The translations under genes and the position numbers were made by a program. DNA of 63,903 nt, filler included, from Folioceros fuciformis (taxonomy: Eukaryota): assembly GCA_049999805.1 (NCBI GenBank). It is 10 parts of 10 records of this genome, joined end to end, with 100 filler letters (N's around TTAATTAATTAA, not from the genome) between each part and the next. Parts side by side here need not be neighbours in the genome. Positions count along the whole stretch, not along the records: positions 1 to 6,744 come from JBNGIO010003950.1; 9 more parts are not named here. One strand, written 5' to 3'. The stretch's first letter is position 1; each line of letters starts with the position of its first letter. The notes below the pieces were generated by a model, which saw nothing but the letters and a program-made list of their open reading frames with translations, had not been told where the DNA came from and ran no database searches. Positions 1 to 43,237 of the stretch are shown piece after piece.

Positions 1-162
1 GGCGATGAGCGTGAGCGCAAAGGAAAGGAAAAACGGTTATATAAATTCAGCAAAAATGGTGCATATATGCAAGAGTTGAGTTGTCTATTATAACTGATCA
101 TAAAACTACTAAAATGTATTTAACCTAACTGTAAAGTAATATTAATTCCTTTACTCCCTCTT
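1..162 (-). repeat. Probable PPT (154-162) and start of the 3' LTR of Copia element A
   Basis: Minus strand reads AAGAGGGAG then AT-rich sequence to the window edge. The LTR would start TA rather than TG (possible deamination). Confidence 0.4.
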
Positions 163-498
163 AGTTGCAATGATCAGAAGGGGAAAACTTTTGAAGAACC
201 AAAAAAAACGTTGTCTTACTAATAAAGCCCTGAAACGTGCTCCTTGCTCCAAACGGAAATCATTGTGAACAGGGCATACAGATCACGCCTAATCCTCGTG
301 ATTGTGACAGCCATTCTTAACGTTGTAGATTCCACACTCCAAGCTTTACGTTGCAGCCCCTGTTACGCCCAAGTTCCCTAATGCAAAACCATGTCGCTCA
401 ACCTGAACCCGTTTGAACTTTGCAATTCGGCTGCCACGCTTCTCCTCGCTCGGCTCTTGCTCCTTCTTGCTCTTGGGTGCAAACATTGCTGTCTATCC

Positions 499-1217
499 AT
501 GGAATTCAGGAAGGGCCATGCCCCAAGGGGTATCGAGTGCACACACTGCGGTAGGGAATGGATACCAGCAGAAAGATACTCCCCTAGGCAGTGGCTATTG
601 CACATGAAAATTTGTGAATATTACCCGATGAACATAGATTCGCCCAATACAGAAGAGCAGAGAATGAAGATGGATGTGGCCAAGGCCATGTTCAAAGCCA
701 TGGTACCAGCTGGATTCTAAGTGAGACTTGAGGACACGCCTCCAGAGGTGTCCTTCGCAGAGCCAACAAAAGGGAAACATGGGAGGATCCCTCATCAAGA
801 ATATGAGAAGCTGATGAACTCTTCCCTGCCTAAAGAAGAAGGAGAGCTACATTACTACTATGCATACAGAATCAGTTCTGACAGTGTGGCTGAAAAATTG
901 AATGAGCAGGAACAGAATCTTCTGCTGCGAGCTTCCAAGATAGGTGGTGATCGTAGCAAGTCTCCCTCTGGAGCTGGAGTAGGATCAAAGGGGAGTTATG
1001 ACGACTCTGACGAAGAAGGGCAGGTGCTTACATGTGAGTGACTCCTTCATCCACCCTGCCACTCCATTTACCTATATATCTCACCATGCTTGACTAATGT
1101 CCTTACCTCCTTGTCATGTGGTATGCAGCAATGCTAGAAGAGCTGAAAAAGGCGGAAGAACTACTGCAGACCTTGAAGAGGAAGATCAAGGAGAAAGGCT
1201 ATCACCTGGACATATGA
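499..1217 (+). pseudogene. Spliced antisense accessory gene in Copia A, with C2-HC zinc-finger-like N-terminus and short coiled-coil-like C-terminus
   Basis: ORFs 391-720 and 721-1041 share a frame and are separated by one TAA. Motif CTHC-x17-HMKIC. Intron 1034-1128 (GTGAGT, TGACTAAT branch, TGCAG) joins in phase to SMLEELKKAEELLQTLKRKIKEKGYHLDI*. Confidence 0.6.
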
Positions 1218-2057
1218 AGCATGTTGTGAGAACAGCTAGTCTCGTGTGCTGTGCCTGGCTTATGTGAGGTAGAAGCCAGGCCAAGCCCTACTGCGGTAGT
1301 GTGTTTTGAATGCAAAACCTTGGGCAAGGCCTTTGTAAGCAAGTCTGCAATGTTATCACTAGTTGGAATGTATCTCACCTCAACCTCACCTGTATCAGCA
1401 ACTTGCCTAATGAAGTGGTGTGTAATCTCAATGTGTTTTGACTGTGCATAAAAAACGGAATTCTTAGAGAGGGCTATTGCCGACTGATTATCACACCATA
1501 ATCTGGTGGCTCCCGATGGCAACTGCTGCAAACCCCTGAGGAATGATCGGATCCAAATAATCTCTCTCGCTGCTTGGGATAAAGCCCCATACTCGGCTTC
1601 AGTTGAAGATAAGCAGATGGTCGTGAGCTTCTTGCTGGACCAAGAGACTACAGAACCCCCAAGCAGATTTTAATATGCAGCTATAGTCCTTCGACTATCG
1701 GGATCCTAGTCTACGTCACAATAAGATGTAAGCCGCAGGCCAGCAGATTGCTTAGTGTACTTCAAGCCGTGTCTTGGTGTCCCTTTCAAGTAGCAAAAAA
1801 TCCTCTTTTTAACTATCCAGTGTACTTCTCCCGGGTTCTCCAAAAACTGTGACACGTTGCTAACGGCTCTAGAAATGTCCAAACGCATCCAGGTAGCAAG
1901 GTAAATAAGGCTACCGATTGACTGCCTGTATGGGCGTGATGCCATGATATCCTTTTCTTCTTGTGTGGAGGGGAATTTCTCCTTCGAGAGTTTCTCACCT
2001 GTGGACATAGGTGTAGACACGGGACGAGCATCAGCCATGTTAAAACGCTGCAACGGC
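1202..2057 (-). mobile_element. Ty1/Copia element A: RT C-terminus and RNase H (degenerate)
   Basis: PYRQSIGSLIYL, YLKGT, CDNQSAIALSKN, KHIEITHHFIR, NIADLLTKAL. Confidence 0.95.
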
Positions 2058-4779
2058 TGATAGACAAAATGCTCCTGATGGATCTCTATAGTATGCCTAT
2101 CATGAGAGAACTGGAACTATACACCCAGAGAAATCTGACCTAACCCTAATTAGGTTTAACTCTAGTCCTAACCTAAACCTAATCAGACCTAAACATAGTT
2201 AGACCTAGTTCTAACCCCAACCTAACCCAAGCCGAACTCTAACCTACCCCTGCACCTAATTGCCCGTTACCCCTTTGGACACCGCTGGTTAGCCTCTATC
2301 CAAAATTATTAACCTCTCGCAACTAGCAAAAATCATCAGTGCCTCTCAACACTGTACTCTCCTCTCTCAGATCATCCCTTTCCCTTTCCCTCATTCATCC
2401 TGCAACCCTTTGAGAGCCTCCACCTACTTCCAGTCCCCCACCCCGCATCCTGTTGGTCAGGGGGCCCATGACCCGCAGAGCTACCCGTAGGAGGGGTGCG
2501 TTGCTCGGGCCCCAGTCTAGGTGTAGAAGTAGCAATGCATGGCTCATGNNNNNNNNNNNNNNNNNNNNNNNNNNNNNNNNNNNNNNNNNNNNNNNNNNNN
2601 NNNNNNNNNNNNNNNNNNNNNNNNNNNNNNNNNNNNNNNNNNNNNNNNCAACACTCTCCTCTCCTCTCTCAGATCATCCCTTTCCCTCAATCATCTGCAA
2701 CCCTTCAGAGCCTCCACCTACTTCCGGTCCTCCTACTTAGTCAGGGGGCCCATGACCCAGCAGAGCTGCCCGTCTAGTACCCCTGAGGAGTAACCTTGTA
2801 AACCTGGCACCTGAAAGTGACATCCCACCATGTCTTGCCCACATAATTATCACTAGGCTTCCCGCCTGCGAGCAGCATGTCTGTATTTAGACCTTCTGCC
2901 TATGAGCAGCCAAACGTGCTACTCGCGGATAGATAGCCAAATGCTAATCATATTATCTGGCTGCCCGTAGGAGGGGTGCGTTGCTCAGGCCCAGTCTAGT
3001 TGCAGAAGTAGCAATGCATGGCTCATGAACGCATTCGGTGCTGCCCAGGTTGATCGCTCAAAAGGCCCATAGCAGCATTAATCCAACACCCCCAGCAGCA
3101 TTGATCCCTCTTTCTCTGGAGCCACAAACCTTCTTCCAACTGCCCCGCTTCACCCAGCCCGTTGAGAAACGGTTGCCTGCTAGCCGCTCAGATCACGGCC
3201 GCACAGCCCATGCCTGGCCCTTGCTCATCCGACCAGTCCTCCTTCCTTGCTGCAACCCGGCCGCTGTTCCACTCTGATCTAGCCCATGATTCCACCAAAG
3301 TCGCAAGAGCAGCGTCTTGCTTCCTGATTGGTCTTCCAACCGTGATCCAGCCAACACCAAAATCTGCCTACCATCTGACTGCCTGCTAGCATGCTACTGA
3401 CCCGCCCGCTAGGCTGCCTTCGATCTGGCCAACGTTTGCCTGGACGGATCCGCCTGTAAGGTTGCCGTCAGCCGGCCTGCCATTCCGGCCGAATCCTTCC
3501 CCTGCAGCCACAACTTAGCTAACCCGCTGACTAGCCATGGTCCAGCCAGTCGGCCTGGCTGCCTAAATTCTCCATTCCCCGGTCTGCCTGGATCCCAGCC
3601 AGCTCCTGGAGCCCACCAATCGGGTCTCTACCCCGCCGACCTGGCCTGGGCCTGGCTTCCGCCCACCCTGCTAATCTAGCCAAGCGGCCACCTCTCAAGA
3701 CTCACCTAGCCAGTCGGCCTGCTGGATTCAGCCCGCAGCCTGCCTGGGTCCGCTCCAATCTCATTCGCAGCCGGCCAAGCGTTGGCGCGTACCTGTGGCC
3801 TGAATTAGCTGGCCATGCCGGCTAGCCAGGCAGTCGGGCCGCTACTAGCCCGGCCACCCACCCTGTTGCTTGTCCCGCTGCCGGCCCGGGCTGGCTTGCT
3901 AGCTAGGCCCTTCAGCAGCCCGCCAATCTGTCAGCAGCTCCCCAGCGGTTGTGGTCAGTGGCATGGGCAGCCAGCCTCCAGCGCCCAGCCAAGTCGACTG
4001 TGCCCTGCCTGGCCGGTCTATTGGCTGGCTAGATCTAGCCGGCAAGCCAGCTAGACCCGACAGCCAGCCTCCCCTGCCAACCTGCGACCTACCGGCTGCC
4101 TACCTACGCTGGTGCTGGGTCGCTTGCCCGGCTCCAAGATCTACTGGCCAAGTAGCTAGGCCGACTCTTGCTGCTGGCTGCCTGCCTACAACTCGATCGG
4201 CTGGGCTGGCCACTGCCGAGCCGGTCTGGGTTGCCTGCATGCTTATGGCCCGGCTGTCTGCACTCCGCATGGCCGGTGTGAATCCAACCCGGCTGCTGGC
4301 CTGCTGACAGGCCAGGCTGCCTGCTGCCCCTTGCGCCTACGGCCAGCCGGCCCGCCCGATCCAGCCCCGTCCTCAACTTGGATTCCATCCCGGCCTGCTA
4401 CGCCCGTGGATCCAGCGCCGCCCGCCTGGCCTGGATCCGACTGCTGTTGAGCCGCTTGCCGGCTCCCAGACTTGGCCCTGGCCTCAACCAACCTGGATCC
4501 ACCTGCAGCCGACCCGCCGCCAGCTCTCTTGGCAGCCTACTGCCAGGCCGCTTGCTAGAGGCCTCAAGCTGGCCTCCCTCCTTTCGGATTTGGCCAAGCA
4601 GCCAACCTGCTCGGCTTGGCTGCCTGCTAAACCGGTCCGCCCAGAGCTAAAGCCGCTGCCTGTCACCTGTTCCAGCCATGCCCATCCGGCCAGCCCGGTT
4701 GGGCGAGCAGCCAGACCGCTACTAGCCCAACCCCCTGCTTTTCCGACCAACCCGGCCGCCTGGCGCGCTAGATCCGCCA
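2058..4779. repeat. GC-rich repetitive insertion (probable large LTR-type sequence) interrupting Copia A
   Basis: Starts TG at the RT breakpoint. CCTAA-rich head, internal duplications at 2345-2548, 2649-2775 and 2960-3030, then CCAGCC/GGCTAG/GATCC-rich sequence similar to the reverse complement of 46500-48160. Confidence 0.55.
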
Positions 4780-5011
4780 ATAAACTTCCAGCATCTGTCT
4801 ACTTTGGTGAACAATAGTGTCTTTAGAGATCAGCTATCTTTTCCTTTTGACAACCAAGCCTTTTGTGATTCCTGTCAGCTTAGCAAAGTCATTTCACAAC
4901 CCTTTCGAGATCAGCACCTCTCTAGAGCCCCTTGTCTTCTGCATACAATTCATAGTGGCGTTTGTGGACCCATGTCCACAGCATCCTTTGGTGGTGCTTC
5001 TTATTTTCTCA
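4780..5011 (+). mobile_element. Inverted Copia integrase N-terminal fragment
   Basis: INFQHLSTL...CDSCQLSK...IHSGVCGPM...GGASYFLT. Confidence 0.9.
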
Positions 5012-5066
5012 CTGCCGCCAGTCACCTATTCCAGCCAAGAGGCCACCTGAGTCTGCTAGCCAACCC

Positions 5067-6554
5067 ATGTCCCAATCAACAGTGCCACAATTGAGTAGGT
5101 GATAAAGAAGGGGAATGACTTACATAAACTGTGGTTTGCTATGGAAGGGTTCTGATATTCAACAAATAGAGGTCATTAAATGGTGTACCTGAGAAGATCT
5201 CATCCCAACCAGGTATTCTAGAGATGGAACAACCAGTGTGATCAAAACAAATGCGACAGTAATGTTCTTCTACTAGCTTCAGGACCGATATTAAATTCTT
5301 AGTTATGGCTGGAACAAAAAGCACACCTGTAAGGGTAATGCAGTCTAAGCTAGGCAATTCTATAGTGACCAAACCAGAGCCCTTAATGGCAAGACCACTG
5401 TCATCACCTAACAAAACAAACTGATGATTATCAGTATAGGGAATGAAATCACTGAAAGAACGTCTATCATAACTGATATGGTTAGTTGCTCCTGAGTCCA
5501 AGAACCACATATCAGTCTGTATTTGTATGGAAGATAAGCAAACTGCCAAAATAGAAGGGGACTTCGTAGAAGAAGCCTTGGAAGTGGTCAAGTTAGATTC
5601 AGCAGATGCTTCCCTTTTAGGTTCCCCTGCTTGTTTCTTCCTGCAGTCCTTCTCATAGTGCCATGGGATTTTACACCAGTTGCACGTAAATGTCTTCCGT
5701 TGCAAATTTGGGTGTCTCGGGCCGGATAAGGCACCACGTCCTCGACCTCGAAAACTCCCTCTACCTCGTTCAGAAAAAAGGACTCTTGAGTTCTATTGTG
5801 ATCCTTGCTTATTCTTATGGAAACCCTTCGTGCGGTCCTCAGCTAGAAGTGCACCTAGCAGCTCCTCCAAATTTAGAGAAGGTGCTCTTGTAGGTACTGT
5901 AGAAGAGGACCTGGTACTTTGGGAGCTCACAAAATGACTGTAACTCTCAGGTAAGGAAGCAAGAAGACTGACAGCAACCTGTGCTTCTGTTAGGGTTGTT
6001 CCACAATAAGCTAAAGTTGCACGTGCTGTGTGAAACTTGTTGATGTATGATTCCACTGTCTCGTTCTTCTTCATCCTCATACTGTAAAAATCCCTGTGTG
6101 CATGGAGTTGAGATGCACTACTCCTGTCCTTGTAGATGAGACTGAAATTGTGCCAAATAGCAGTAGAGGTTTCAGCACCCAAAGTGTGAGGCATCATATT
6201 TCTGTCAAGGGAAGCTATGAGAATGGAATGAGCTCTTCTATCTCTCCTCTGCCATTGTAATATATCAGCAGCATTGATTGTTGTAACATGCGTTGCATTT
6301 GCAGGCTGTACAGCAGGTATGGGCTCGGTCCCATCAACAACCGACATCTGCTCATTCTCCTCAAAAATTTGGGTCAAACGCATTGACCATATGTTGTAGT
6401 TGTTTCCATTGAAATGATCCTTGTCCTTGAACTCGATCTTTAGGGTTGATTGAGTGAAAGCTGCCATGGTTGAAGAAGTGACCCCCGTTGATGTTGATGC
6501 TGCAGTGGTATTCAATGCAGAGATTGACGGTTGCTGAGCCGCCTGAGATGGCAC
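5067..6554 (-). mobile_element. Copia A gag, zinc knuckle, protease and GAG-pre-integrase
   Basis: FNGNNYNIWSMR, CNWCKIPWHYEKDCRKK, WFLDSGATNHI, KNLISV, LWHC*LGH. Confidence 0.95.
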
Positions 6555-6744
6555 TGGATTCTAGTTAAACTAAACTCTGCGAGGGAAGGAATCTGGATTC
6601 CCTCCTTGTAAACTCAGTAGAGGGTCTGGTACGTCCTCTAGCTCCACTATGCCGCCAGAATTGAAGTCGAATTCACCATCAGATCCGACGCTTCGAAATC
6701 TTCCTGGCAGCATGTCATCAAACTGGATAAAGAGTCAGTAATGG

Positions 6745-6844
6745 NNNNNNNNNNNNNNNNNNNNNNNNNNNNNNNNNNNNNNNNNNNNTTAATTAATTAA
6801 NNNNNNNNNNNNNNNNNNNNNNNNNNNNNNNNNNNNNNNNNNNN
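6745..6844. other. Artificial scaffold linker N-TTAATTAATTAA-N (also near 10141, 16916, 27163, 31092, 37572, 43238, 48161, 56238)
   Basis: The same ~100-nt spacer with a six-frame stop 12-mer occurs nine times. Confidence 0.97.
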
Positions 6845-9702: not shown

Positions 9703-9814
9703 ACTTGCAGGATCACCCTCACAATCGGGTTCCATGCCGTAGCAAGCTCACGATTCGGGTAGCAACAAATTCATGTCTTGATGTTTTGGATACCAGCAGA
9801 CTCACAATTACGTT

Positions 9815-10140
9815 TTGGGTCATAGCAAGCTCACTCACGATTTGGGTCGCAGCAAGCTCACTCACGATTTGGGTCGCAGCAAGCTCACTCACAATTTGGG
9901 TCGCAGCAAGCTCACTCATGATTTGGGTCGCAGCAAGCTCACTCACAATTTGGGTCGTAGCAAGCTCACTCACGATTTGGGTCGCAGCAAGCTCACTCAC
10001 GATTTGGGTTGCAGCAAGCTCACTCATGATTTGGGTTGCAGCAAAGCTCACATTTTGGGTTGCAGCAAGATAATCACTCACGGTTTCGATCATGGCAAGC
10101 TCACTTACGTTTTGGGTCACAGCAAAGATCACATTTTGGG
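9815..10140. repeat. 27-bp minisatellite, about 12 units
   Basis: Unit GCAGCAAGCTCACTCACGATTTGGGTC. Confidence 0.95.
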
Positions 10141-19821: not shown

Positions 19822-22166
19822 TGAAGGATCGCTAGAGGAGCCACATGGTGAAGGAGGAGAGGAGAAAGAGAGGTCACACTCTTAGTCTCACATTGCAAGG
19901 GAGCTCAAGGGGGTTTATATATCCTCTAGAAGAGCTCGCTAGGAAGCTTCACAAGAAGCGTACAGGAAGCCACACAAGAAGCTTCCTACATATTAGCTTA
20001 AGCTAATCTAAACAAATGATCCTTAATTAGACACTAATCTTAGACTAAACACATTAATCTAAGCACATTGGGCTTTAATAACCCTACAACCTCCCACTTA
20101 AAGGCCAATTTACCTGCATAGGAGAGTGGTCTACCTCATGCCCATGAGTGTCCGAGCTTGTGCGAATTGCTCTGTAGAGAGCTCCTTGGTAAGAACATCT
20201 GCAGGGTTCTGATTGGTGTGAACTTTGACAAGCTGTACCCTCTTGTCTTCCAACACCTCTCGAATGAAGTGATACTTCACTTCCACATGTTTGGTCTTCG
20301 CATGAAACACCGGATTCTTCGCCAATTGGATAGCACTCTGGCTATCAGAATGCAACACTAGCAGCTCAACCTTGATCCCCAAATCTCCCACTAAACGAGC
20401 AAGCCACATGGCTTCCTTGCAAGCCTCAGTCGCTGCAACATACTCGACCTCTATGGTAGATAGCGTTATGCACGATTGCAAACGAGATCACCATAAGACT
20501 GCCCCTCTAGTGCACATGAAGACATGACCTGATGTGGACCTCCATTTGTCCATATCCCTTACATAATCAGCATCCATATATCCCACAACAGATGCATCTT
20601 CACTACCAAAACATAAGCACAAAGCTTTCATACCATTTAAGTACATCATAACTCCTTTCACTGCCTCCCAATGCTTCCTGCTAGGGTTTAACATAAACCT
20701 GCTGAGCACTCCCACTGCAAAGGCAATGTCAGGGCGTGTAGCAATCATTGCATACATCAAACTCCCTACAGCTGATGAGTATGGAACTTGCTCCATTTCA
20801 GCTTTGTCCTCTACAGAGCTTGGGAAATCCTTGCTCGACAGTTTCACATATGGAGAGTACTCAATACCTTCCCCTTCTTCATATTGAAACGTTGAAGCAC
20901 CATGTTAATGTATTCAGTCTGAGACAAGTAAAGCAAATGCTTATGTTTGTCTCGACGAATGTGCATGCCAAGAATATGGCTTGCCTCTCCTAAGTCTGTC
21001 ATGTCAAAATGACCATTCAACTTTGACTTCAACGCTGAAATCTCATCACTATTAGTCCCAGCAATTAGCATATCATCCACATAGAGGACCAGAATCAGCA
21101 AGCTTCCATCCTTAGCTTGCTTCGTATAGAGGCAATGATCCTCATCGCTACGTTTGTAGCCTTGAGAAAGCATAAATGAAAGCCAAACACATCCTTTCCT
21201 AGTAGCATCATATGTGCTAAACCACTCCCTATACGGAGTACCGTGGAAAGATGCCCCAGAGTCAATTATCCAATTAGAGAATAAGTGACTCTTTATGGCT
21301 GTCTGTTGTGCAAAATCAAAGGAAGAAGAGGTAAGAACATCTCCATTGTCAACATAATTCACCTCATCAGGCTTGCTACTCAAGCTTGCCTTGTTGTCGC
21401 TCTACTTCTTCTCCTTTCCTTTATCCTTCTTGAACTTCTCGTAGTCCTTCCTGATGTGACCCTTCTTGTGGCAATGGTAACACTCAACATTGTTACGACT
21501 ACAAGATTTGCTACGGGAAGAACTTTGCTCCTTGTACTTCCCCTTTGAAGTGGACCTTCCTCTCATCATGAGGGCATTGGAACCTTTTGAAGGTTCCATA
21601 TTCTTCTAGTTCACCTCCTCTGTTAACAGGCTACCTTCCACATTTACAACGATAAGACCACTGGTAGGAGCAGAATTACTCAAAGCTGTACAAAAGGTGT
21701 CCTAGCTCTCTGGTAATGTGACCAACAGAAACATAGCTCTCACAGAATCTGGGAACGAGATACCTTAAGATGAGAGCTGGCTGAAAATGGTATTGAACTC
21801 GTTCAGACGATCAAACATCCTCGTCCCTTCCTTCATCTTCAAGTCCACCAGCTATTTTAACTAGTACACCTGAGAAGGCGCACTTTGCTTCTCATTCAGG
21901 TCACACAACTTCTGTCATAGCTCGTATCTTGTGGTCTTGTCTTTCATATTGAAGTAGACTGACTTCAACAATGTTAGCATGATGGTAGACCTAGCAAGCT
22001 CATCTAGATCCTGCCACTCATCCTGAGTCATGCTAACAGGTTTCACTCCTAGCAGCTTGATCTGCTTCTTCTGTATTAGAACATTATACACTTGTTCTTT
22101 CCAAAACGGAAAGTTAGTACCATCTAACTTCTCGATATTGAACATGACGTTTTCTGAGGATGTCAT
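19822..22166 (-). mobile_element. Tnt1/Tork-like Copia, internally deleted (no integrase), 3' LTR 19822-20088
   Basis: IEKLDGTNFPFWK, CYHCHKKGHIRKD, WIIDSGASFH fused to RT LYVDDMLIAG, RNase H. PPT AAGTGGGAGGT then TGTAGGG. Confidence 0.93.
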
Positions 22167-22723: not shown

Positions 22724-25700
22724 CGGGTACCTTTGCTAGATTAAGGACTCTAAGGAGAGGTAGGAAAGAGGATCTATATTCTTACATAGAGAGGTTCTAT
22801 AGCTACCTAGATAGGGTCCCCAGAAGGTCTGGAGAGCCTGGATGGCAGAGTACACTGGGATATTCGGATGAGCAAGCCTTCGATTGGTTTGCTGGTGGCT
22901 TACTTGAGAAGATGGAGACCTACTGTCGAAGAGGTGTGACAACTTTGGAAGGAGCCATCAAAGCTGCTGAAGACTACGAGATGACGAAGATGAACAAGAG
23001 AAGGAGGAGGCAGTGGGAAGCTAAGAGGCATGGGGGAAGGAGACACTCTAGCCCCAATTCTTCATCCAGATGTACGTCTCCTTCTTTGTTAGATGTGGAA
23101 CTTGAGAGCTATGGGTCAGCTAGGTATTCTGACGAGGAGTCGAACTGTGGTTATGGAAGGAGGATCAAGAAGGATCTGGACAGAGTTCGTAGGAGATGTT
23201 AGGAAGAAGCTGAGAGGTCGGCTGAGAAGGACAGGAGAGGAAAGGGATCTTACAGGATTGAGAGAGTTGTCTTACCTACGGGCGGAAGTGTTGCGGAGGA
23301 CAAGATTGAGGCATTGACCAAGCATTTGGCAGAGATGGAGGTGAAGACTATTCGCAACCAAGCACCAAGGAGATCACCATCTCTTGGAAGGCACGGGGTA
23401 TATTGCTCAATTTGTCAACAAGCAGGACATACCAATGGGGAGTGTGCTAGATCACTGAGACATGCTGTCAATCAGGTGGAAGCTTACATGCCAAGTGACT
23501 ATTGGTATGTGGATGATTCTTACCGAGTGCAGGCTGTGACAGCCCCTGGCTTTCCGCAGTCATTGAGGCCATCTTTCCAACCGACAGCACCTCCTGCAAT
23601 GAGGTATGGGAGACCATCTTCACCCGGATCATGGAGGCCTGATCCATCACAGAGACCTGTAACTATTCCTCTAGGAGGATGTTACAATTGTGGGATGACA
23701 GGTCATTATATAATGGATTGTCAAGAACTGTGCCGATAGATTGGTTTTGTACCATTTTGTCAGATTTGTAAGGACCCAGGACATAGAGCAGGAGATCCTA
23801 GGTGTACGGGGATACCAAAGACAGTACCTTCTAGGACATCAGGAGTAAGGATCACCGAGGCAACCACGGAAGGTGCTACTGTCGGGACAGAACCATCTAT
23901 CCCGATGACAAGTGCACCAGTTCTATCTGTAGAGGCTGAGGAGGCGGTCGAGACTGAATTTGAGATGTACTCAGGGATTGTGGAGGAAGGCTACGCCAGT
24001 GAGTATAGTGATGGTGAGGAAATTTCAGTTGCAAGGGTTGTCACCAAGTCAAAAAGGAGAGAGAAGGAGCGGAAAAAGGGATCTAATTGAAGTAGGAAGG
24101 ACCAGAGGAGGAAGGAAAAGGACAGTCCTCCTTGGGTTGCTGAGACAAGGAGGGCAACATTGGCTGAAAAGGAGAAGAAGAAGGATTTTTTTGTCGGACA
24201 AAACGATCTGTCTGTGGGGCAGAAGGATCTGTATACTGGGAAGGAGTCGGTTCTTACAAACAAAAGTGGGCAAAAGTAGGATACTACAAATTGGAAGGAG
24301 GAAGATCCGACTGAAGAGGATTCGGTCATGACAGGAGAGTCATTGTTTCCTCCTGACATTAGTCAGGAAGTGGCTATGATGTTAGAGGAGGAATTGGACA
24401 GGTTGATGAGGAAGGCTAAGAAGGTTTCATTTTCAGAGCCTTTGGTGACAAGCGTGGTGGAGAGTACTCCTCCGATGGGAGAGCAAACGGAAATAGAAGA
24501 TTGCCAGCAAGAAGGAGGAGGGGAGGTAATCATTCCCCAAGAAGTGGAGACAACCCGAGAGGCTTTGGCCATGAAGGTGGCAGGGTTTGCGGAGGCCCTG
24601 TTAGATCAAGAGTTTGTGGCAACTTCTGTCAGTTAGCCCCAAAACTAGGAAGGTGTTGAAGGAGGCCATTCGAGGGATGCCAGAGTCACTACATGGGAAA
24701 GATGTGAGGTATGTAGTGAATGCAGATGTGGAACTTGTGGATTGTGGCGATCCTGAAATTGAGATAGAGATAGTTGGTTGCTTGGTGCCAGATGTGCCAC
24801 TTGACACAGGGTTGGGAGTAAACCTCATGACGGAAGACACATCTTATAAGTTAGGGTTTACAGAGTTCAGTACTATAAGGGTCTACTTGAGAATGGCAGA
24901 TCAGACCAAAAAGAAGCCGTTGCGAGTGTTGAGAAATGTGCCGACGATAATAGGAGGAATTGCTTTCAGTTTAACCTACATTGTCATGAAACCTATTTCA
25001 AACTTGGGATACAAGGTGTTGTTGGGAAGGCCTTGGTTGTATGGGGGAGGTTGCGTGTTTGATTTTGAGAGGAAGGGTGTAACTTTTAAGTCAGGACAGG
25101 GAGGATCTGCCGGAAAGGTGTTTGTGACCTGGAGTAGGATGCCACATGGAGGGGAGACTGATCCCTATTCTCCAGGGTACACGTCTGGAAGCGGGACTTC
25201 ATCAACAAGTGGTGCTGAAGTTTACAGCAAGTTGGGGACATCTGTCCAGATGGTGCTGACAGATGAGGAGGTCTCTTGTTACCATACTCAACAAGAGTCG
25301 GATGAGAGTTTTGAAGAGGATGAGGTACATAGGGAAGGCTCTGCCTTTTGGAAGGGCAAGGCCTATGATTATGACTTTCCTGACGAGGGGTCAGGAGTAA
25401 GTGTAGCGAGTAGTCTAGGAGGGGGGTATGTGGATCCTAACGTGGTGGAGGATCTAGTGTTGGCAGAAGGGAAACATGTTAAGATATCCAAACACTTGTC
25501 AACAAAGGAGAAGGAGGAACTGAAGGCATTGCTCATAGAGTATATAGATGTTTTTGCCTTCAAGGTGACAGGAATCCCTAAGGAGTTGGGAGTTCACCGG
25601 ATAGATCTGAAGGAGGGTAGCACACCTATCCGGGTAAAGCAATATAGGCTCAACCCCAAATACTCCATGCTAGTGAAAGAGCAGCTAGACCTAGAGGCTG

Positions 25701-26945
25701 GGGTGATCTATCCAGTTCTGACAAGTGAGTGGGTGGCACCTATTGTGGTAGTACCTAAGAAACAACCAGGGAAGGTGAGGGTTTGTCAAGATTTTAGGAA
25801 GCTTAATGAAGCCACCAAGAAGGACCATCAACCACTTCCATTCATGGATAGTGTGTGGGATACGGTCCTTGGCCATGAGATGTATAGCTTCTTAGATGGA
25901 TACTCATGGTACAACCAGATTTCACTAAGGCTAGAGGATAGAGACAAGACTACTTTCACGACAGATTGGGGTACCTTTGCTTATGCCAAGTTGCCATTTG
26001 GGCTACGTAATGCCCCATCAACTTTCCAAAGGATAGTGAATACCATTTTCAAGGACTACCTTAGAAAATTTATGGAGGTCTTTTTGGATGACATTTTGTG
26101 TTTTTGGGAGAAGGGCCCTACATGGGGGACATTTGAGGAGCTGTTTGCAGCGGTTTAGGGACACAAGTTTCAAGCTACAACCAGACAAATGTTTCTTTGG
26201 GATGCTAGAGGGTATACTTTTAGCTCATAGGGTTTTAGCTAGGGGATTGCAAGTGGACATGGAGAAGGTCAGGATAATCTCTCAGTTGGAGGCACCTTGA
26301 ACAGTTCGACAAGTGAGAGCTTTTGTGGGGCTGGTTGGCTACTATAGGAGATTCATTAAGAATTTTGCTAAGAAGGCTGCAATCCTAACGCAGCTAACCA
26401 AGAAGGATGAGGAGTTTGTGTGGATAGATGAGAGGGAGGCAGCATTTCAGGAGTTGAAGGGAAACTTGGTGGAAGTCCCTACCTTAAGGCCACCAGATTG
26501 GGAGAAGCCCTTTCATGTCTATGTGGATGTATCAGCATATGCTATTGGAGCTATCTTGAGTCAACTAGATGACAAGAAGAGGGACCTGCCCATCTTCTAC
26601 GCTAGGAGGCAATTGTCAGATGCTAAGAAGAACTACTCCACCACAGAGAGGGAGGCTCTTAGAATTATCTATTCTTGTAAGAAGTTCAGACATTATCTTT
26701 TGGCTTGCAAGGTGGTGTTCCATGTGGACCATTTCGCCCTCAAGTATTTGGTCAATAAGCCAAATCTGTCAAGAAGGATTGCACGTTGGATGCTACTTTT
26801 ACAGGAGTTTGACTTTGAGGTAGAGACAAGGGCTGGGAAGAAACATGTGAATGCAGACGTCATCTCTCACTTGAAAACGGTGGGATCCATCAGGAAGATG
26901 GATGATAAGTTTCCCGACGAAGGGTTAGTAGCAGCTGTCCAGGAG
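22724..26945 (+). mobile_element. Athila-like Ty3/Gypsy gag-protease-RT-RNase H, truncated before integrase
   Basis: CCHC knuckles, VPLDTGLGVNLM, VCQDFRKLNEATKKDHQPLPF, FLDGYSWYNQI, PFGLRNAPSTFQR, FLDD, NYSTTEREAL, RWMLLLQEFD. Confidence 0.93.
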
Positions 26946-27262
26946 TTAGATGCGAGTGAGAGACAGAGGAACGAGATCTATCAGCTCGACCGGACGAGGC
27001 AGGACAAGAGGGCTTACAGACAGAGAGGTCTAATGGTTTTGGAGAGGGACCACCAGATTTTTGTAAATAAAGCGGAAGCTCTCGTGTACACGAAACAAGT
27101 GCACAAGCAGGAATGAATTTAATTAAGACAAAGTATGCTTAAATACAAAAATGTCCGTGTAANNNNNNNNNNNNNNNNNNNNNNNNNNNNNNNNNNNNNN
27201 NNNNNNTTAATTAATTAANNNNNNNNNNNNNNNNNNNNNNNNNNNNNNNNNNNNNNNNNNNN

Positions 27263-27941: not shown

Positions 27942-30900
27942 TGTAAGATCTCTACAGGGGCTACATGGTGAAGGAGAGGAGAAGAGGAGGCAAGAAGAGA
28001 GGAGAAAAGAAAGGTCACACTCTCACAATAGAGTCTCTCAATATACAAGGGAGCTCAAGGGGGTATTTATACCCTCTAGAAGAGCTCCCTAGGAAGCTTC
28101 ACAAGAAGCCCACAAGAAGCTGCGCAAGAAGCTTCCTACAGACTAGCTTAAGCTAATCTAAACTAATGATACTTAACTAGACAATAATCTTAGACTAAAC
28201 ACATTAGTCTAAGCACATTGGGCTTTAATAACCCTACAACTTCCCACTTAAAGGCCAATTTACCTTCATAGGAGAGTAGTCTACCTCATGCCCATGAGTG
28301 TCCAAGCTTGTGCGAATTGCTCCGTAGAGAGCCCCTTGGTAAGAACATCTACAGGGCTCCGATTAGTGTGAACTTTGACAAGCTGTACCCTCTTGTCTTC
28401 CAACACCTCTCAAATGAAGTGATACATCACTTCCACATGTTTGGTCTTCGCATGAAACACTGGATTCTTCGCCAATTGGATAGCACTATGGCTATCACAA
28501 TGCAACACTAGCAGCTCAACCTTGATCCCCAAATCTCCCACTAAACGAGCAAGCCACATGGCTTCCTTGCACGCCTAAATCGCTGCAACATACTTGGCCT
28601 CTGTGGTAGATAGCATTATGCACGATTGCAAACGAGATCGCCATGAGACTGTCCCTCCAATGCACATGAAGACATAACCTGATGTGGACCTCCTTTTGTC
28701 CATATCCCCTGCATAATCAGCATCCGTATATCCCACGACAAATGTATCTTCACTATCAAAACATAAGCACAAAGCTTTCGTACCATTCAAGTACCTCATA
28801 ACTCCTCTCACTGCCTCCCAATGCTTCCTGCCAGGGTTTGACATAAACCTACTAACCACTCCCACTGCAAAGGCAATGTCAGGACGTGTAACAATAATTG
28901 CATACATCAAACTCCCTACAGCTAATGAGTATGGAACCTTCTCCATTTCAACTTTGTCCTCCGTAGAACTTGGGCAATCCTTGCTCGACAATTTCACATA
29001 TGGAGACAACGGAGTACTCAATACCTTCCCCTACTCCATATTGAAACGTTGAAGCACCTTGTTAATGTACTCAGTCTGAGACAAGTAAAGCAAACACTTC
29101 TATCTGTCTCGACGAATACGCATGCTAAGAATATGGCTTGCCTCTCCCAAGTCTATCATGTCAAAGCAAGTATTCAACTTTGACTTCAACGCTGAAATCT
29201 CATCACTGTTAGTCCCCGCAATTAGCATATCATCCACATAGAGGACCAGAATGAGCAAGCTTCCATCCTTAGCTTGCTTCGTATAAAGGCAATGATCCTC
29301 ATCGCTACGTTTGTAGCCTTGAGAAAACATAAATGAGTGGAATTTGAAATACCACTCCCTGATTGCCTGCTTCAAACCATAAAGGCTCTTCTTTAACCTA
29401 CACACCAGACTCTCTTTGCCCTTCTCAATGAAACCCTCTGGTTGCTGCATGTATACCCCTTCTCGGAGATCATCGTGTAGAAATGCTGACTTCACATCCA
29501 TCTGGACAAGTTCCATGTCGTGCTTTGCAANNNNNNNNNNNNNNNNNNNNNNNNNNNNNNNNNNNNNNNNNNNNNNNNNNNNNNNNNNNNNNNNNNNNNN
29601 NNNNNNNNNNNNNNNNNNNNNNNNNNNNNNCAACTAGACCAAGAACACATCGCAAGGTGGTCATTTTGACAACCGGTGAGAAAATCTCATCAAAGTCAAT
29701 ATCTTGCTGCTGCTTAAAACCCTTAGCAACCAATCGTGCCTTGTACTTGGGTTCGCCATAATGGGGTATGTCCTTTATCTTATACACCCGTTTGCATGGC
29801 AACGCCTTCTTGCCCCTAGGCAACCAAACCAACTCCCAAGTTTGGCTCTTGTGGAGTGAATCCATCGGCGACTGCATCGCCTTCTCCCACTTGTCCTTGT
29901 TAGTCACTGACATGGCCTCTTGTAACAAGAGGGCTCGCCACAATCCGTCAGCATGACCTAATCAAGAGATGCAACATACCTGTCAGGAGGACGTGAGATC
30001 CTTCCTGACCTACGAAGCACTGGCTCCTCGACCGGAGCTTGTTGCACTCTCTCCTCTCCTACAAGTGGAGGAACTTGTTCCTGCACATCACGACGTTCAA
30101 CCTGCTCGGGACGGTCAAATCCATCCTCTTGAAAGACCACTCGTCACACCTCCACAGTTGGAGTAGGCTTCTTGTGCATCTTGGCCTCATTGAAGAACAC
30201 GTCATTGCTACGAACCATTTTCTTGGCCTCTGGATCCCATAGACGTTATCCCATCTCACCAGACTCACCATGGCCAAGAAAAATACATTTCTTGGACTTG
30301 GGTGCCAACTTGTCCCGAAACTCCTTCGGAACATGGTAGTATGCCTCGTAGCCAAACACTCGTAGATGCTTGTATGACGGCTTCTTTCCAAACCACATCT
30401 CCTCTGGAACCTGCTCATTCACAGCCCTATTAGGAGATCTATTAATAAGATGCACTGCAGTAACCATTGCTTCTGCCCAAAATCCGTTAGGCAATCCAGA
30501 GTTTGACAACAAACTACGCATCCTCTCGTGGATGGTCCTGTTCATCCGTTCAGCCACACCATTCTAAGGAGGAGTATACGGCGCAATCAATTCTCTCTTT
30601 GATTCTCTTGGAATCACAGAATGATTGGAAACCCTTCGAAACATACTCTCCCCCATTGTCTATCCTTAAACACTTCAGTCGAAGGCTAGACTGATTCTCT
30701 ACAAGGATGACGAATTTCTAAAACACTGTTAGAACATCATCCTTTTTCCTCAAAGGATAAACCCACACCTTGTGTGAGAAATCATCTATGAAAGTGACAA
30801 AATAAGATGCACCACCTAACGATATAGTGGGCATAGGTCCACAAACGTCACTATGAACCAACTCAAGAGGTTTACTTTTGTGTTTACCTCTTGCTCCGTT

Positions 30901-31191: not shown

Positions 31192-34100
31192 AACATAGTG
31201 ATGTTGAATCTCGATGTGCTTAGTACGGGCGTGAAACATAGGGTTGGAGACTAAGGCGATGGGTGACATATTATCACAGTTAATAATCGTAGGTCCTGCT
31301 TGTTGCATACCTAAGTCTTCGCATAACTTCCTTTCCCACTCTGCCTCCTTTGTAGCTTCTATGAGAGCTTTGTACTCCGATTCCGTGGAGGACAAAGATA
31401 TAGAAGCTTGTTTTCTACAAGACCAATTCACAACTGTGGAGCCGGCAAGGAAGCAATAGGCCGAAAGACTCTTTCGAGTATCTGCATCGGAAGCCCAATC
31501 TGCATTGACATAGCAAGTCAATTGTAGACTCCTTTTGCCAATGGGCTTGTAGCAGAGACCATAGTTAGGAGTACCCTTGAGGTACCGCATAATTCTTTAA
31601 GTGCTACCTAGTGATCCCTTCCTGGGTTCTCAGAGAATTGCGCAACTGCATTAACAGTATTAGATATGTCTGGTCTTGTCCAATTGCTTAGAAACATAAG
31701 GGTATCGACCGCCATACGATAAGGCACACTCTCCATTTCCTTTTTCTCTTTGTCAGACTGTGGACAAGAAGACGAGGAGAGCTTAACACCAACAGCACCT
31801 GGGGTGACAGCTGCTCATGAGTTCTCCAAGTTGAACCTCTTGAGCATCCCGGCTACATATCGACCTTGATGAAGGTAGATAGCTCTAGAGGACCTGTCTT
31901 TATGTACGTGCATCCCAAGAATGTATTTAACTTGACCCAAATCTTTCATTTCAAACTCCTTGCTGAGATCAGCCTTGATTTGGTTAACCAGCTCCACATT
32001 ATTACCGAGGATAACTAAGTCATCCATGTATAACGCTATTAAAACAAGTGAGCTGTCCTTTTGCAGCACATACAAGTTAGTATCTGCTTCGCTTTGCACG
32101 AAGCCAATCTTCTTAAGATAAGAGTCAATTCTCTTGTACCACAGTCGAGGACTTTGTTATAGCCCATAAATAGATCGAAGGAGTTTACACACCTTTTGCG
32201 AGAATCTCTTATCCTGATAATCCTCAGGTTGATCCATGTAGATCTCTTCTTCCAAGTGACCATAGAGGAAAGCTGTACAAACGTCCAGCTGATAGATGTC
32301 CAAGTTAAGTTCTGCACACAAAGCAAGGAGCATCCTTATCGAAGTTGCTTTAACGATAGGGGAGTAGACTTGATCGCCTTGATAGTTGACTCCTTCTTTC
32401 TGACTATAGCCCTTGGTGACTAGCCTCGCTTTATAACGTATGCGGGGCTCAACCTCTTGAAACTTTGTTTTGAGTACCCACTTGCACTTGACAGTTGTCC
32501 TTCCTGGGGGTAGATCCATTAACGTCCAAGTGTTATTCTTGACTAAAGAGTTATACTTATCGTCAACAGCCAATTTCCACTTGTTAGCCTCAGGTCTAGC
32601 ATAGGCTTCATGAAGCGTGAGAGGATCTCCCTCTTAAACAGCAGATTTCATAGCAAAAGAATAGGCAGCTGGATCAAGATCTGTATACCCAGCTTGATTA
32701 AACTCCAAGTCAAATGGCTTCTCATGCCAGAGGTGTCTTGGGAGTCGCTGACGCGTAGGGTATCTACGCTCAGGAACAACAACTTTAGGTCTTGGGGGTG
32801 ATGGGGTTGGTAGAGGAGTATCTGGGGCCGCACCAACATGTATGTCCCCAAAATCCAAAGGCATTTGTCCTTGTGCATCATCCATGGGCCGATCATCTTT
32901 CCCCTCTCGAGCAGGACCCGGAGGAACCGGAACTGCTTGAGGTAAAGGAGCCATGGTGGGAACAACACTATCAGGAAAAGACGAAGGGCTTAAATCAAAG
33001 TGAACAGAAAGGCCATCAATAGAGCGGGGAATGGTGGAGATAGAAGCAGGAGCATCATCCTCATCCAAGAGTGGATCGGAGGAGAGGATGCTAGCCTCAT
33101 CAAAAGTGACAGTCCGAGCATAAATAGGAGTCCGAGTAGCCATGTTAAGCAACTTGTATGCCTTGCAATCCTCCCCATAACCCACAAAAACCAACTTCCG
33201 CGCTCGGGGAGAAAGCTTATTGCCGAGTGGGGAGGGAACATAAGCATAAGCAGGAGATCCAAAGATGCGCAAATGGGCGATCAAAGGCTTGTACCCATGC
33301 CAACACTCAAAGGGAGTACGGCCCACCAAGGACTTAGTAAGTAACCTGTTCTTGATGTAGATGGCCGTAGAGACTGCCTCAGCCCAGAAAGACTTAGGCA
33401 AGCAAGACTAGGCTAGCATAGCCCACGCCATGGCCATAAGGTTGCCATTGGCCTTCTCAGCAACACCGTTCTGAGCAGAAGTGTAGGGAACCGTGAATTG
33501 TCGCAAGATCCCTCGCTCCTCACAGTAGGCTTTGAACTTATGGTTGTTGAGTTCTCCAGCATTGTCGGATCTAATGCACCGCAGCTTGCAACCAGTGTGC
33601 AACTCGGCCATAGAAACAAAAGGGGAGAACACAGCAAAGGAGTCACTCTTGAGACGAAGGGGGTACGCAAATGAGTAGCGGGAATAATCGTCCACTATCG
33701 TCATAAAATGGCGTGCTCCGCCTAGAAAAGTAACAGGGAGAGGTCCACACAAGTCTACGTGAATTACCTCCAAAGGTTGAGAAGCTCTATGAGCAGGAAG
33801 ACTAGAGTAGGGAGAGCTCCGCTGCTTGGCGAGCACACACGCTTCACAAAGAGGTGGTGTCTTAGCCAAGGAGGGCAACTTATCTCGATACAAGTCCTGC
33901 TGTGTCATGACAAGGAGCTTGGCATGATTGAGGTGCCCAAGGCGACAGTGCTAGAGGTGAGCATTCCCTGATGGAGGAAGCCCTGGTGGTGTGGCAACCT
34001 TAGAAGATTCTACTACGGTTGGAAGTGAAGGGGTTACAGGGGTGCCTGTGAAAATGTAGAGATCACTCCCGAGCTGCCCTCTGGCTACAGGTTGCCTTGG

Positions 34101-38902: not shown

Positions 38903-41900
38903 ATGTCAGCCCCTACTTTTACCTCTGATCTTAAGAGTACAGACAGATTTAATGGCACGCGTTTTGATATTTGGAGTGTTAGGATGAAATCCACTTTACT
39001 TGCTCGTGGAGTCTGTGATGTAGTTGATGGGACAAACCTAGATCCCGGCACTCCTTCTAATCCTACAACAGTAGGAGCTATTGTTACTCAAAAACAGAAA
39101 GATGCATGGGATAACCTGAACAGAATTGCTGTAGCCCTCCTAGTCAATGGGCTTGAGTCTGATCTTGTCCCTGAAGTCGAGTTTCTCACCAATGCAAAAG
39201 CAATTTGGGATCAGCTTACAGGAACTTATAAAGTTGAAACAATGATGAGCTTATGCGCAGTAAGGCAGCAATTTTATCTTGCGCATGAAGGAAGGAGATT
39301 CTGTTGCAGCATTCACTAGTCGATTTAGGCACTTGCGTGCTCAAATGGCTGCTCTTGGCACAACTATGCAAGAGGTGGATGCGGTAGCTCAGCTTCTCAC
39401 CAGCGTGCCTCCCAGTTACCAGACATTTGTCACCACGCAAAATGGTCCCATTTGAGCTGCCGGCCAGAGTGTCAAGCTCACATATGTTATTGGGGCTCTA
39501 TATCAAGAGGAAATGAGCTGCCAAATGTCATCAAGGGGACAACACAGCCGTTCTAAAACTGACAAAGTTTTTTCTGCGACAAGAGGAGGTCGATTCAACA
39601 TGAGAGGTAGAGGGAGAGGTCAACCACCTGCTCAGCGCAATGCCACTCAACCTTCTGCATCAAGGAGACAAGGTAACTGCAATTGGTGTGGGACTCCTGG
39701 GCACTGGGCCAGAGAGTGCAGAAAGAAAAAGGCCGGGGAGCCTCAGCGGGCAACACCTCGACCTACAGCTGCACCTGCCACATCACAATCAAAAGAAAAG
39801 GTTTCCGAACCTCAGTCAAGCAAACCAGTTGTGAAAATATTAACACTCTGCCTGAGCACTCAAACGAGTGAGGTATACAGTTGGTACCTTGATAGCGGTG
39901 CCACTGCTCACATATGTCGTGATGAGCTCCAATTCACTAGCTTGACCCTTACCACTATTTCTGAACGAGTGTTCTTAGGTGATGAATCCAGTTCCAGCAG
40001 TCTGCACATACATGGTAAAGGCATCTGTAAGTTCCCACTTCATGATGATACTGTCTTAGTTTTACCAGATGTTCTTTATGTTCCTAAGATGGCTAAAAAT
40101 TTAATGTCACTTAGCAAGATAATGCAGATGAAGGACCTCATACTTACAGTCTCAGAAACCACATGTTGCTTTGCTCGTCGTAGCTCACCTTCTCGCTGTA
40201 TTTTCAAAGCTGTCCTAGATTCAGAATTGTATCGTCTGGGTATCTCTTGTATCCGCCGTGAACAAGTAAATTCAACAGCTGTTGGTCCCTTGACAACAGC
40301 TCAGCAGGCTATACTTTGGCATGCCCGCCTTGGGCATGCAAACCGTTCTAAACTTGTTGACTTATCAAGGCAGGACTGTTACAGGGAGCCTCTTCCTCGC
40401 TGTTTCAAAGATCTGCCCATATGCGAAGTTTGTGCTTTGGCAAAACAGCGGGAGACTCCTTTTCCTACAGTTCCTGCATTTCGATCCACGGCAGTTCTGG
40501 AGTTAGTACATGCTGACATTAGTGGGAGACTTCAAGAACAATCTCTTGGTGGAGCATTATATTATTTTACTCTCACTGATGACTATAGCAGATATACATG
40601 GACCTACCCTATGGAGCATAAGAGTGACACCTTTCAGATATTTCAAGACTGGCTGTTGGTTGTTCAAAGGCAATCTGGTCGCATGCTGAAGATGTTCCGC
40701 ACTGACAACGGAGGGGAATTTACAAGCTCTGCCTTTGAGCATTTCCTGGAAACACAAGGCATTATCCATTAGTTGATAGTTCCATACACGCAGCAGCAGA
40801 ACGGCGTGGCGGAAAGAAAGAACCAGACTCTGATGGGGATGACGCGCTCCATGCTTTTATGGTCTGGACTGCCCAATCCTTTCTGGGCTGAGGCTGTTGT
40901 CACAGCAACCTACATTTTGAACCGCCTTACCTCTCGTTCTNNNNNNNNNNNNNNNNNNNNNNNNNNNNNNNNNNNNNNNNNNNNNNNNNNNNNNNNNNNN
41001 NNNNNNNNNNNNNNNNNNNNNNNNNNNNNNNNNNNNNNNNATGTGCCTGCAGAGAAGAGACGTAAGCTTGACAATCGCTCGAGACAGCTTGTATTTGTAG
41101 GCTACAGTGAAGTGACTAAGGGCTACAAAATTCTTGATATGCACAATATGCAGCCGGTGGTAGCCCGTAGTGTTACCTTTATTGAGCATTTGGTTCCATC
41201 ATCAGCTGATTCTCCTTATTTACCAGGCACTTTGGGGGATTCTACCAGCCAATTGTATTCTGAAAATTCTGGTGAGTATCCAGATGATGTTGACGGTGAA
41301 GCTGATGCTGGTGTCATGTTCCCACCTGCTCCTCCAGCTGATACTCCACTAGATGCAGAGCCTGATGCAGAATCTGCACATGACAATGCTGAAAATTCAG
41401 ATCATGATCTTCCCCACAATCCAGTTAACCCCGTAGAATTAGAACCTGACAGTTCTTCCCAATCTTCTGATTCTTTTGGTGAAGAAGAGACATTACCAGC
41501 ATTGCCAGTTTCAGCTGATGTTACACATGAACCTGTACGTAGGTCTACACGTGCTCATTGCCCTCCCTCTGAATGGCTAGAGCCCCGTTACACATCTATC
41601 GACTTTCGTAAGTCAGTGGGAGTCTGTATCCCATCTGTCCACAATGCCTCTTTGCCCATTATCCCTCCTGAGCCTGTCACTCTCAAAGAAGCATTTTCAG
41701 GTCCCGATAGAGATAAATGGAGGCATGCTGTGGATGATGAATTCAACAGTCTTATGCAAAATGGTACCTGGAAACTTGTTCCTCGTCCTAAGGGGCGCAA
41801 ACCTATAACCTGCAAATGGGTATTCAAGCATAAGTTAGATGCTGATGGTAACATAGCACGTTATAAAGCAAGGCTCTGCGCACGTGGATTCACACAAATA

Positions 41901-43237
41901 CCTGGTCTGGATTTCCAAGAGACATTTTCTCCAGTGGTACGCTCTCAATCAATTCGCCTCATGCTTGCTTTAGCTGCTGAGCGTGACTTAGAAGAAGAAT
42001 TGTATATGGAACAGCCCGAAGGCTATGAAGACCCTGATCATCCAGACTATGTGTGTCAACTTATTAAGTGCATTTACGGCCTTAAACAAAGTGCAGAACG
42101 GTGGAATGCAAGACTGGATACCTGCCTAAAGGGCCTTGGATTTCGACAGAGCCCTGCAGATCCTTCTGTCTACATCTATGATGATGGCACCTCTTATGTT
42201 CTTCCGGCTGTTTACGTTGATGATGCCATATTTGCTGGAAATGATACCCACTTGTTAGCACGAGTTCAAGACATGTTACGAACAGAATTTGAAATGACAG
42301 ATGTAGGGGAGCTGAAATTTTGTCTTGGTATACAAGTATTGAGAGTACGTGCAGAGGGGTTGATCATTATCCATCAGCGTAAATATATTTCAGAAATTCT
42401 CCAACGTTTTAACATGGACAATGCACATCCTGCCAACACACCTTGTGCAAGTGGTGTCAAACTCACCAAGGATGACAGTCCCGTTTCAGCTGCTGACATT
42501 GCTGATATGAAAGATGTCCCATACCGGCACGCAGTCGGCAGCTTATTGTTTGTAAGTAATTGGACTCGGCTAGATATCACATATGCTGTGAACACAGCCT
42601 CTCAATTTCTGGACTGTCCTGGCCGTAATCACTGGACTGCCATCAAACGAGTATTTCGTTATTTGAAGGGGACACATAATTATGGACTATGCTACAAAAG
42701 AACAGGAGAAACACCTACCTTGTCAGCCTTTGCTGATGCTGACTGGGCATCTGATGGGGACACACGCAAGAGCTTGTCTACATATGTCTTCTTCTTATCT
42801 TCTGCAGCCGTTACATGGAGCTGTAAGAAACAAAGCAGCATTGCCCTCTCAAGCACTGAAGCAGAATATAAATGCCTCACCGATGCTGCGAAAGAAGCTG
42901 AATGGGCACGCTCTTTCCTCTCCTCAGTGCACTGTGAGCAGCTACTCCCTACTACACTGCACTGTGATAATCAATCTGCCCTAGCCCTTGTTGATCGTCC
43001 TAGGTTTCACGCTAGAACGAAACATATAGAAATTGCACATCACTACGTTAGGGATGTCAAGGCTAGGGGAATTGTCAGCCCTGTTTATATCCACACTGAC
43101 GGAAATACGGCTGATGTCCTCACTAAACCACTGCCCAAACACAAACATCAGACGCATGTAGAGGGTTTAGGTCTCGTAGATTTCAGCAAGTTTTACTGCC
43201 TGATTGAATGCTTACATGGTGGACAGCCCCACAGAGT
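38903..43237 (+). mobile_element. Copia element C (CNWC lineage) gag-pol, few disablements
   Basis: CNWCGTPGHWARECRKK, WYLDSGATAHI, LWHARLGH, RTDNGGEF, QQNGVAERKN, YVDD, DADWASD, KHIEIAHHYVR. Confidence 0.97.

Follow-up and report, generated by a model that had tools for sequence, protein, structure and literature searches.

A candidate antisense accessory ORF with an intron-like end, next to pol in a Ty1/copia retrotransposon family of Folioceros fuciformis

A long open reading frame (ORF) lies just downstream of pol, on the strand opposite gag-pol, in a Ty1/copia retrotransposon copy from Folioceros fuciformis; the stretch that carries it recurs in other copies of the family, and the two stop codons that break the frame here are private to this copy. 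We put the chances at about even that it represents an antisense accessory ORF of this Copia family, of the type found between pol and the 3' long terminal repeat (LTR) and known as aORF-3R. Below, we describe the host element and the frame, weigh the frame against chance and against capture from elsewhere, and consider its intron-like end and its predicted product.

The window, i.e., the whole stretch of DNA that was analysed (63,903 nt, filler included), is made up of small scaffolds chained by N44, a 12-nt linker with stops in all frames, and another N44, and the scaffolds themselves hold gaps of 100 N or 10 N. Such N runs and linkers are found at 2549-2648, at 6745-6844, and at 13 further pairs or runs, and features are not linkable across these points. 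The element called Copia A in the initial annotation itself crosses a 100-N gap. The antisense frame sits in the first scaffold (1-6744), and its host element is a Ty1/copia LTR retrotransposon by its domains, namely a Copia-type gag, a Pol beta-barrel, and an RVT_2-type reverse transcriptase (RT)/RNase H (Table 1). For the RNase H part, 225 relatives were retrieved at E<=1e-10 from 1013 candidates; among the 120 listed of these 225, most have RVT_2 (PF07727), rve (PF00665), or Pol_BBD in their Pfam record, and a few have no Pfam entry at all. The closest pol relative is just 54% identical, and this lineage is thus thinly covered in protein collections.

The copy in the window is dead, as can be told from the two private stops in its antisense frame, the in-frame stops in its pol, and the lack of an integrase and RT core, neither of which was found in the ~3 kb between 5142 and 2116. 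A 5' LTR is likewise absent from the scaffold, which ends at 6744. At ~2120-2185 the truncated RT adjoins a very high-copy repeat (2185-2500, with a summed contig depth of up to 1374). Then come ~2.5 kb rich in GC (2650-5100), where either strand has open frames and neither integrase nor RT is present; the region 2185-5100 could stem from a nested insertion or belong to a rearranged element.

Searches of the window by blastn and tblastn returned no second copy of the stretch, and of the other Copia elements in it (two whose 3' ends are close to 58752 and 31192, and a third spanning 39456-43289), each lacks a comparable stretch or is truncated where its scaffold ends. The element at 39456-43289 (plus strand) is the best-preserved one of the window, with a zinc knuckle, Pol_BBD, gag_pre-integrs, rve, SH3, and RVT_2 spread over two long frames, and is itself cut by the scaffold end. 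Two other repeats were seen along the way. Direct repeats at 19886-21154 and 28036-29311 (91-92% alike, ~8.15 kb apart) flank a Ty3/gypsy-type RT/RNase H at 24605-27116 and probably represent the two LTRs of one full-length element, and a tandem array with a 27-nt unit and ~12 copies occupies 9778-10101.

Table 1. Positions of the antisense frame, its predicted parts, and the surrounding features of the host Copia element (window coordinates)
Feature	Position	Strand	Basis or remark
3' LTR of the minus-strand Copia, putative start	1-176	minus	contig breaks
Purine-rich run, proposed polypurine tract (PPT)	146-162	minus	direct reading; no TG after it
Second purine run followed by TG	451-437	minus	candidate LTR start at 436
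Purine-rich run followed by TGTAA	1060-1046	minus	candidate LTR start at 1032
Long antisense frame, 272 codons	226-1041	plus	broken in this copy by TAA at 379-381 and 718-720
First in-frame ATG	391-393	plus	would give a hydrophobic, signal-like N-terminus
Proposed exon 1, starting at the second in-frame ATG	499-1033	plus	
Premature TAA, codon 74, private to this copy	718-720	plus	contigs of other copies
Predicted 95-nt intron	1034-1128	plus	splice-like signals
Proposed exon 2, 28 codons and TGA	1129-1217	plus	Lys/Glu-rich, with a KRKIKEK run
Copia pol 3' part: RT end and RNase H, interrupted by in-frame stops	2116-1202	minus	protein relatives
Copia Pol beta-barrel/protease part	5792-5142	minus	Pol_BBD (PF22936), E 3.3e-20
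Copia gag	6560-5796	minus	Retrotran_gag_2 (PF14223), E 2e-28

The initial annotation had described a plus-strand frame interrupted by a single TAA, and this is what we find: from ATG 499, the frame runs for 180 codons to a TGA at 1039-1041. Its claims on orientation and neighbourhood hold as well: gag, Pol_BBD, and RNase H all lie on the minus strand, antisense to the frame, which directly adjoins the Ty1/copia pol at its downstream side. The frame also reaches further upstream. In this copy it is open from 382, and counted from 226 there are 55 open codons before the first ATG; ATG 499 is preceded by a pyrimidine at -3.

Long frames are not rare in this DNA, and it is conceivable that we are looking at a chance ORF in a long non-coding spacer between pol and LTR, with no gene, intron, or zinc finger to it, which we consider unlikely. 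Over both strands of the 64-kb window, 119 open frames of at least 100 codons were counted. Between 226 and 1041 the antisense frame holds 3 stops vs 7-17 in the five other frames, and some frame with at most 3 stops over this interval turned up in 53 of 5000 dinucleotide shuffles; within a 64-kb window, a 3-stop frame alone is unremarkable. What speaks against chance is the frame without its two private stops: a frame with the terminal stop only, of the length that the family would have, was reached in just 1 of the 5000 composition-matched dinucleotide shuffles, and a stop-free frame of at least 219 codons in none of 2000 local shuffles. The sense strand of 160-1200 holds ORFs of 46-75 codons only.

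That these stops are private follows from the contigs of other copies, taken from public DNA runs under the same species label and aligned at 80% likeness. Two of these runs (X1 and X2) consist of short contigs and a third (X3) looks bisulfite-converted; all three stem from one sample. Together, the (short) contigs of other copies leave no bin of 169-1260 uncovered. The stop at 379-381 is a sense codon in all covering contigs of other copies (four in X1, two in X2, and two in X3), and the stop at 718-720 is a sense codon in every contig that covers it (2/2, 2/2, and 1/1, respectively). The TAA at 718-720 had been thought to derive from CAA; other copies do have a sense codon there, only a different one from the one guessed. 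Since both stops are sense codons in other copies, the family's usual sequence is probably open over the full 226-1041, i.e., for 272 codons, among the differences listed; these figures cover the listed differences and indels, and further stops or frameshifts in this frame may occur in other copies. Of the 14 listed differences with X1 or X2 support in 226-1041, 2 fall on the six stop letters where 0.10 would be expected (binomial P ~0.005), and this enrichment, too, argues against a chance frame.

The stretch recurs in other copies in unbroken connection with the end of pol, as contigs over 1137-1321 and 1137-1348 show. At least two distinct copies bridge the end of pol and the end of the ORF over 1137-1321 (with 9 and 3 differences, respectively, and no gaps), from which it follows that both ends belong to one repeated unit. 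Further inside the frame, the listed contigs over 496-706 and 845-1042 are gap-free. The overlap with pol that had been claimed for the last exon exists in this copy, where pol stops at 1202-1204 and extends 13 codons past the family norm. It does not exist in the others, in which pol already stops at 1241-1243 (all X1 and X2 contigs and most X3 contigs), and the ORF and pol therefore converge without overlap in all but this copy.

A further run (X4), whose kind we guess to be RNA, contains a 5,221-nt contig that agrees with 1557-2500 at every position and has one end at 1557; the other would lie close to where the scaffold ends (6744). This contig could represent the same DNA, or else a transcript that was used for scaffolding. 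X4 has no contig on 1-1512 and is uninformative on expression. No run registered as RNA is listed with 160-1300, and a 1033^1129 joint occurs in none of the contigs; X4 aside, these runs are DNA, in which such a joint would not be expected.

The recurrence of the stretch has a bearing on another alternative, namely that a fragment of a host gene or of another element was captured (by transduction or recombination) and is passively carried by a young family, its "intron" being coincidental. Excised from a longer coding sequence, the fragment would have an open frame on that account and would do nothing for the element. LTR retrotransposons are known to transduce genes, as sections of PMC7264820 describe. 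According to the same sections, transduced ORFs are typical of one or a few copies, whereas here other copies cover the whole stretch; moreover, no donor gene or element came up in any search, though the lineage is thinly represented in them. We hold capture to be an unlikely origin on these grounds, and yet some features of the locus suit it. One contig appears to join 173 to 1021 (with a side of 26 nt), and the open frame nearly fills the 174-1020 interval that this contig skips, closing ~50 nt from its left border and ~20 nt from its right one. The frame being open for 55 codons ahead of the first ATG also favours a captured fragment. Against this it should be noted that the 173-to-1021 joint comes down to one 26-nt side in one contig, and at that strength the stretch may be missing from some copies. 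A related family, 78% alike in RNase H, shows an apparent joint of 177 to 1329, thus from the PPT region to the end of pol (side of 30 nt). If both joints are real, the ORF stretch would be a gain of this family, filled almost end to end by the frame. Such a gain would be as compatible with an acquired gene as with a coding fragment that is passively carried along.

At the left side of the frame, the border of the element was sought in the same contigs. Six alignments with contigs of other loci are interrupted at 165-179, with sides of 21-32 nt that are themselves weak, and these breaks would fit, weakly, a PPT/LTR junction nearby. A variant X2 contig is without 128-180 (a 53-nt indel, joining 127 to ~181-201) and has thereby dropped the proposed PPT. 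The earlier reading of 1-162 as PPT and LTR gives a tentative boundary, with three candidate purine tracts (Table 1) and no 5' LTR in the scaffold to compare with.

We now turn to the right end of the antisense frame, where the initial annotation had placed an intron. All signals that it listed are in place: a GTGAGT donor (1034-1039), a CTAAT branch point-like motif (1094-1098), a pyrimidine-rich run, and a CAG ending at 1128. Joining 1033 to 1129 preserves the frame, as had been stated, and adds 28 codons up to a TGA at 1215-1217; if unspliced, the predicted protein ends at 1041. The interval is also richer in T than exon 1 (34% vs 21%). To gauge how common such an arrangement is, an intron-like layout was defined as GTRAGT at the end of an ORF plus a pyrimidine-rich YAG acceptor 60-250 nt further on that restores at least 25 codons. 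This layout occurs in 2 of the 119 open frames of at least 100 codons, the antisense frame included, and is hence uncommon in the window, not unique; its rarity counts against a chance ORF. With a relaxed donor, the same control gave 4/119 (GTRAG) and 28/119 (GTR). The other frame with the GTRAGT layout lies at 32994-33344 (plus strand), antisense within a Copia pol gene, and is probably due to chance.

The last exon had been described as helical. It does have that look, but this is what one would expect from a stretch of 73% purine in any open frame: purine richness accounts for both its openness and its Lys/Glu-rich, helical appearance, so exon 2 adds little weight. The RNA shows no special fold at the junction either (z +1.05; 173 of 200 shuffles fold equally well). 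Altogether, splicing of the antisense ORF as proposed is a prediction from sequence signals that we find possible, yet doubtful.

Codon usage gives a mixed picture. It was scored with a model trained on the Pfam-supported transposable element (TE) genes of the window, for which the leave-one-out range is -0.013 to +0.102 bits/codon. The part at 721-1032 scores +0.107 bits/codon, which places it in the top 2.5% of 239 open frames and at the top of the TE-gene range, and this resemblance to TE genes speaks against a chance frame. The three remaining parts are not coding-like (-0.059 bits/codon for 499-717, -0.506 for 382-498, and -0.271 for exon 2), in line with what a chance ORF would give. The atlas "recognition" score shows the reverse of this picture: the N-terminal 73 residues reach 2439, where 2300 or more is attained by 91 of 100 real families and by 9 of 100 shuffled proteins, and residues 75-178 (721-1032) reach 1519. 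The few visible substitutions give no sign of purifying selection, with 2 synonymous vs 3 non-synonymous ones in 499-717 and 2 vs 5 in 378-451 (the stop at 379 left out); they look neutral, as a captured fragment would have it. The table is too thin for a verdict, as pol itself comes out at 0 synonymous vs 6 non-synonymous.

As to the predicted protein, the Cys/His motif is present as described (C14-x2-C17-x17-H35-x3-C39, at 538-615 on the plus strand). It is a weak motif, which again leaves room for chance: across the window's 127,802 six-frame residues it matches 4 times without a stop, including once (at 768) on the other strand of the same stretch. The label "zinc-finger-like" rests on four residues, and no profile, structure, or sequence search backs it. 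A check against the zf-BED profile (PF02892) gave nothing even at E<=10, and the sole trace of zf-BED is an atlas cluster at a cosine of 0.80 (rank 21, under the lead threshold). For zf-C2HC_2 (PF13913), the match amounts to 11.6 bits vs a cut-off of 27 (E 0.24) and spans residues 13-19 only, i.e., the CxxC knuckle. In structure prediction, the single-sequence AF2 models were weak (pLDDT 63.7 and 57.5). In the first of them (mean pLDDT 63.7), a helix at residues 29-41 holds H35 and C39, similar to the helix of a zinc finger; a Foldseek search with a weak model gave no fold match.

Searches for relatives were negative throughout, and a chance ORF would indeed have neither homologue nor domain. 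No Pfam family was accepted for the protein from ATG 499 (P0001) or for the 271-residue read-through (P0124), and Pfam revealed no bZIP or Smc domain in the predicted antisense protein. TRP28/Transposase_28 (PF04195) was matched neither by P0124 (E<=10) nor by P0001 (E<=1). Among PDB sequences nothing was significant (3 chains at E 0.47-1.4 in one search, none at E<=1 in a second). In 5.8 billion protein clusters no relatives were found, with 18 candidates at near lengths and 1 at shorter length, none of which scored. A single match among 1.84 billion representatives was discarded as a tandem-repeat artefact. Pattern scans of DNA collections gave 124 matches in metagenomes, 84 in prokaryote genomes, and 7 in viral contigs, none of which was confirmed.

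Taking an antisense accessory ORF as the best reading, one may sketch how it would work. A protein-coding additional ORF opposite gag-pol would lie in the ~1 kb that separates the pol stop from the PPT/3' LTR, and an antisense promoter, located within the 3' LTR or close to it, would drive its transcription from the integrated DNA. The 95-nt intron would outlive retrotransposition, since the genomic RNA corresponds to the other strand and does not bear its splice signals. The predicted protein would start with a part that has the Cys/His residues, continue with a middle that is acidic and rich in Ser, and end in a basic tail; it could act on nucleic acid within the nucleus, or else on how the element itself is expressed. 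In its fullest form, the proposal is that of a Ty1/copia (Pseudoviridae) lineage with its own spliced antisense accessory gene, HBZ-like, whose nucleic-acid-binding product would tune the expression or silencing of the element; this we put forward as a tentative possibility.

The functional product could instead be a non-coding antisense RNA, acting via double-stranded RNA or interference with reverse transcription and with the ORF as a mere bystander, for which there are precedents in the retroelement-regulating antisense RNAs of Ty1 (RTL), micropia, and TART (described in parts of PMC12786077 and PMC7264820), but this would leave a 272-codon open frame unexplained, the junction does not fold better than its shuffles, and no Rfam family matched in the window, making it a very improbable explanation.

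Should the frame turn out to be a captured fragment or a product of chance, the locus is a case of ordinary TE decay. If the antisense gene is real and spliced, it would be the first such gene described for a Copia-type element within the literature searched. No spliced antisense ORF of Copia-type elements was described in that literature, which included few subscription journals and no supplements, and six terms for antisense or extra ORFs are all absent from the Neumann 2019 classification paper. The antisense extra genes known belong for the most part to a few Ty3/gypsy lineages; one in a Copia family would extend them to the other superfamily. In addition, an intron removable from the antisense transcript only would be a built-in marker that separates expression of the integrated DNA from genomic RNA. 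The Conclusion of PMC7264820 in fact calls for looking for antisense spliced transcripts.

The frame described here resembles the known aORF-3R in its placement after pol and ahead of the 3' LTR (the LTR side being putative here) and its antisense orientation to gag-pol, in being borne by the family and not by one copy, in a protein without clear relatives, and in a suspected nuclear or nucleic-acid-binding role. Grande and RIRE2 belong to the Ty3/gypsy elements. Passages of PMC7264820 and PMC11963269 list as aORF-3R gene23 of Grande (maize) and the antisense ORFs of RIRE2 (rice) and Retand (Silene), to which PMC7264820 adds PvRetro13 (Phaseolus) and Boty (Botrytis); according to the latter source, these ORFs are found in most copies of their families, their function still being open. 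Retand, as part of PMC11963269 reports, is Ty3/gypsy as well, and has TRP28 in antisense in 97% of its clusters, within spacers of 2.9-6.6 kb. The present family differs from these elements in several respects. It is Ty1/copia, whereas Grande, RIRE2, and Retand are Ty3/gypsy; its spacer is ~1 kb as opposed to the 2.9-6.6 kb of Retand; it has no TRP28/PF04195 or Smc; and its ORF has a predicted intron.

Among Ty1/copia elements, those of the SIRE type have sense env-like ORFs between pol and the 3' LTR. They share with the family described here an extra ORF from pol to 3' LTR in a Ty1/copia element, yet the SIRE ORFs run in sense orientation and show transmembrane features, whereas the ORF here is antisense. 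Env-like aORFs are known in general, as mentioned in a section of PMC7264820. With regard to a spliced antisense gene, the proposal shares with HBZ a minus-strand gene near the 3' end of a retroelement, an antisense promoter on the integrated DNA, and a nuclear product. HBZ also has a spliced isoform. In HTLV-1, HBZ is an antisense gene with a promoter in the 3' LTR and a nuclear product (parts of PMC7264820 and PMC11963269). The difference is that HTLV-1 is a mammalian deltaretrovirus and HBZ a bZIP protein, whereas the gene here is a predicted one, in which neither a bZIP nor another domain was found, in a Ty1/copia retrotransposon.
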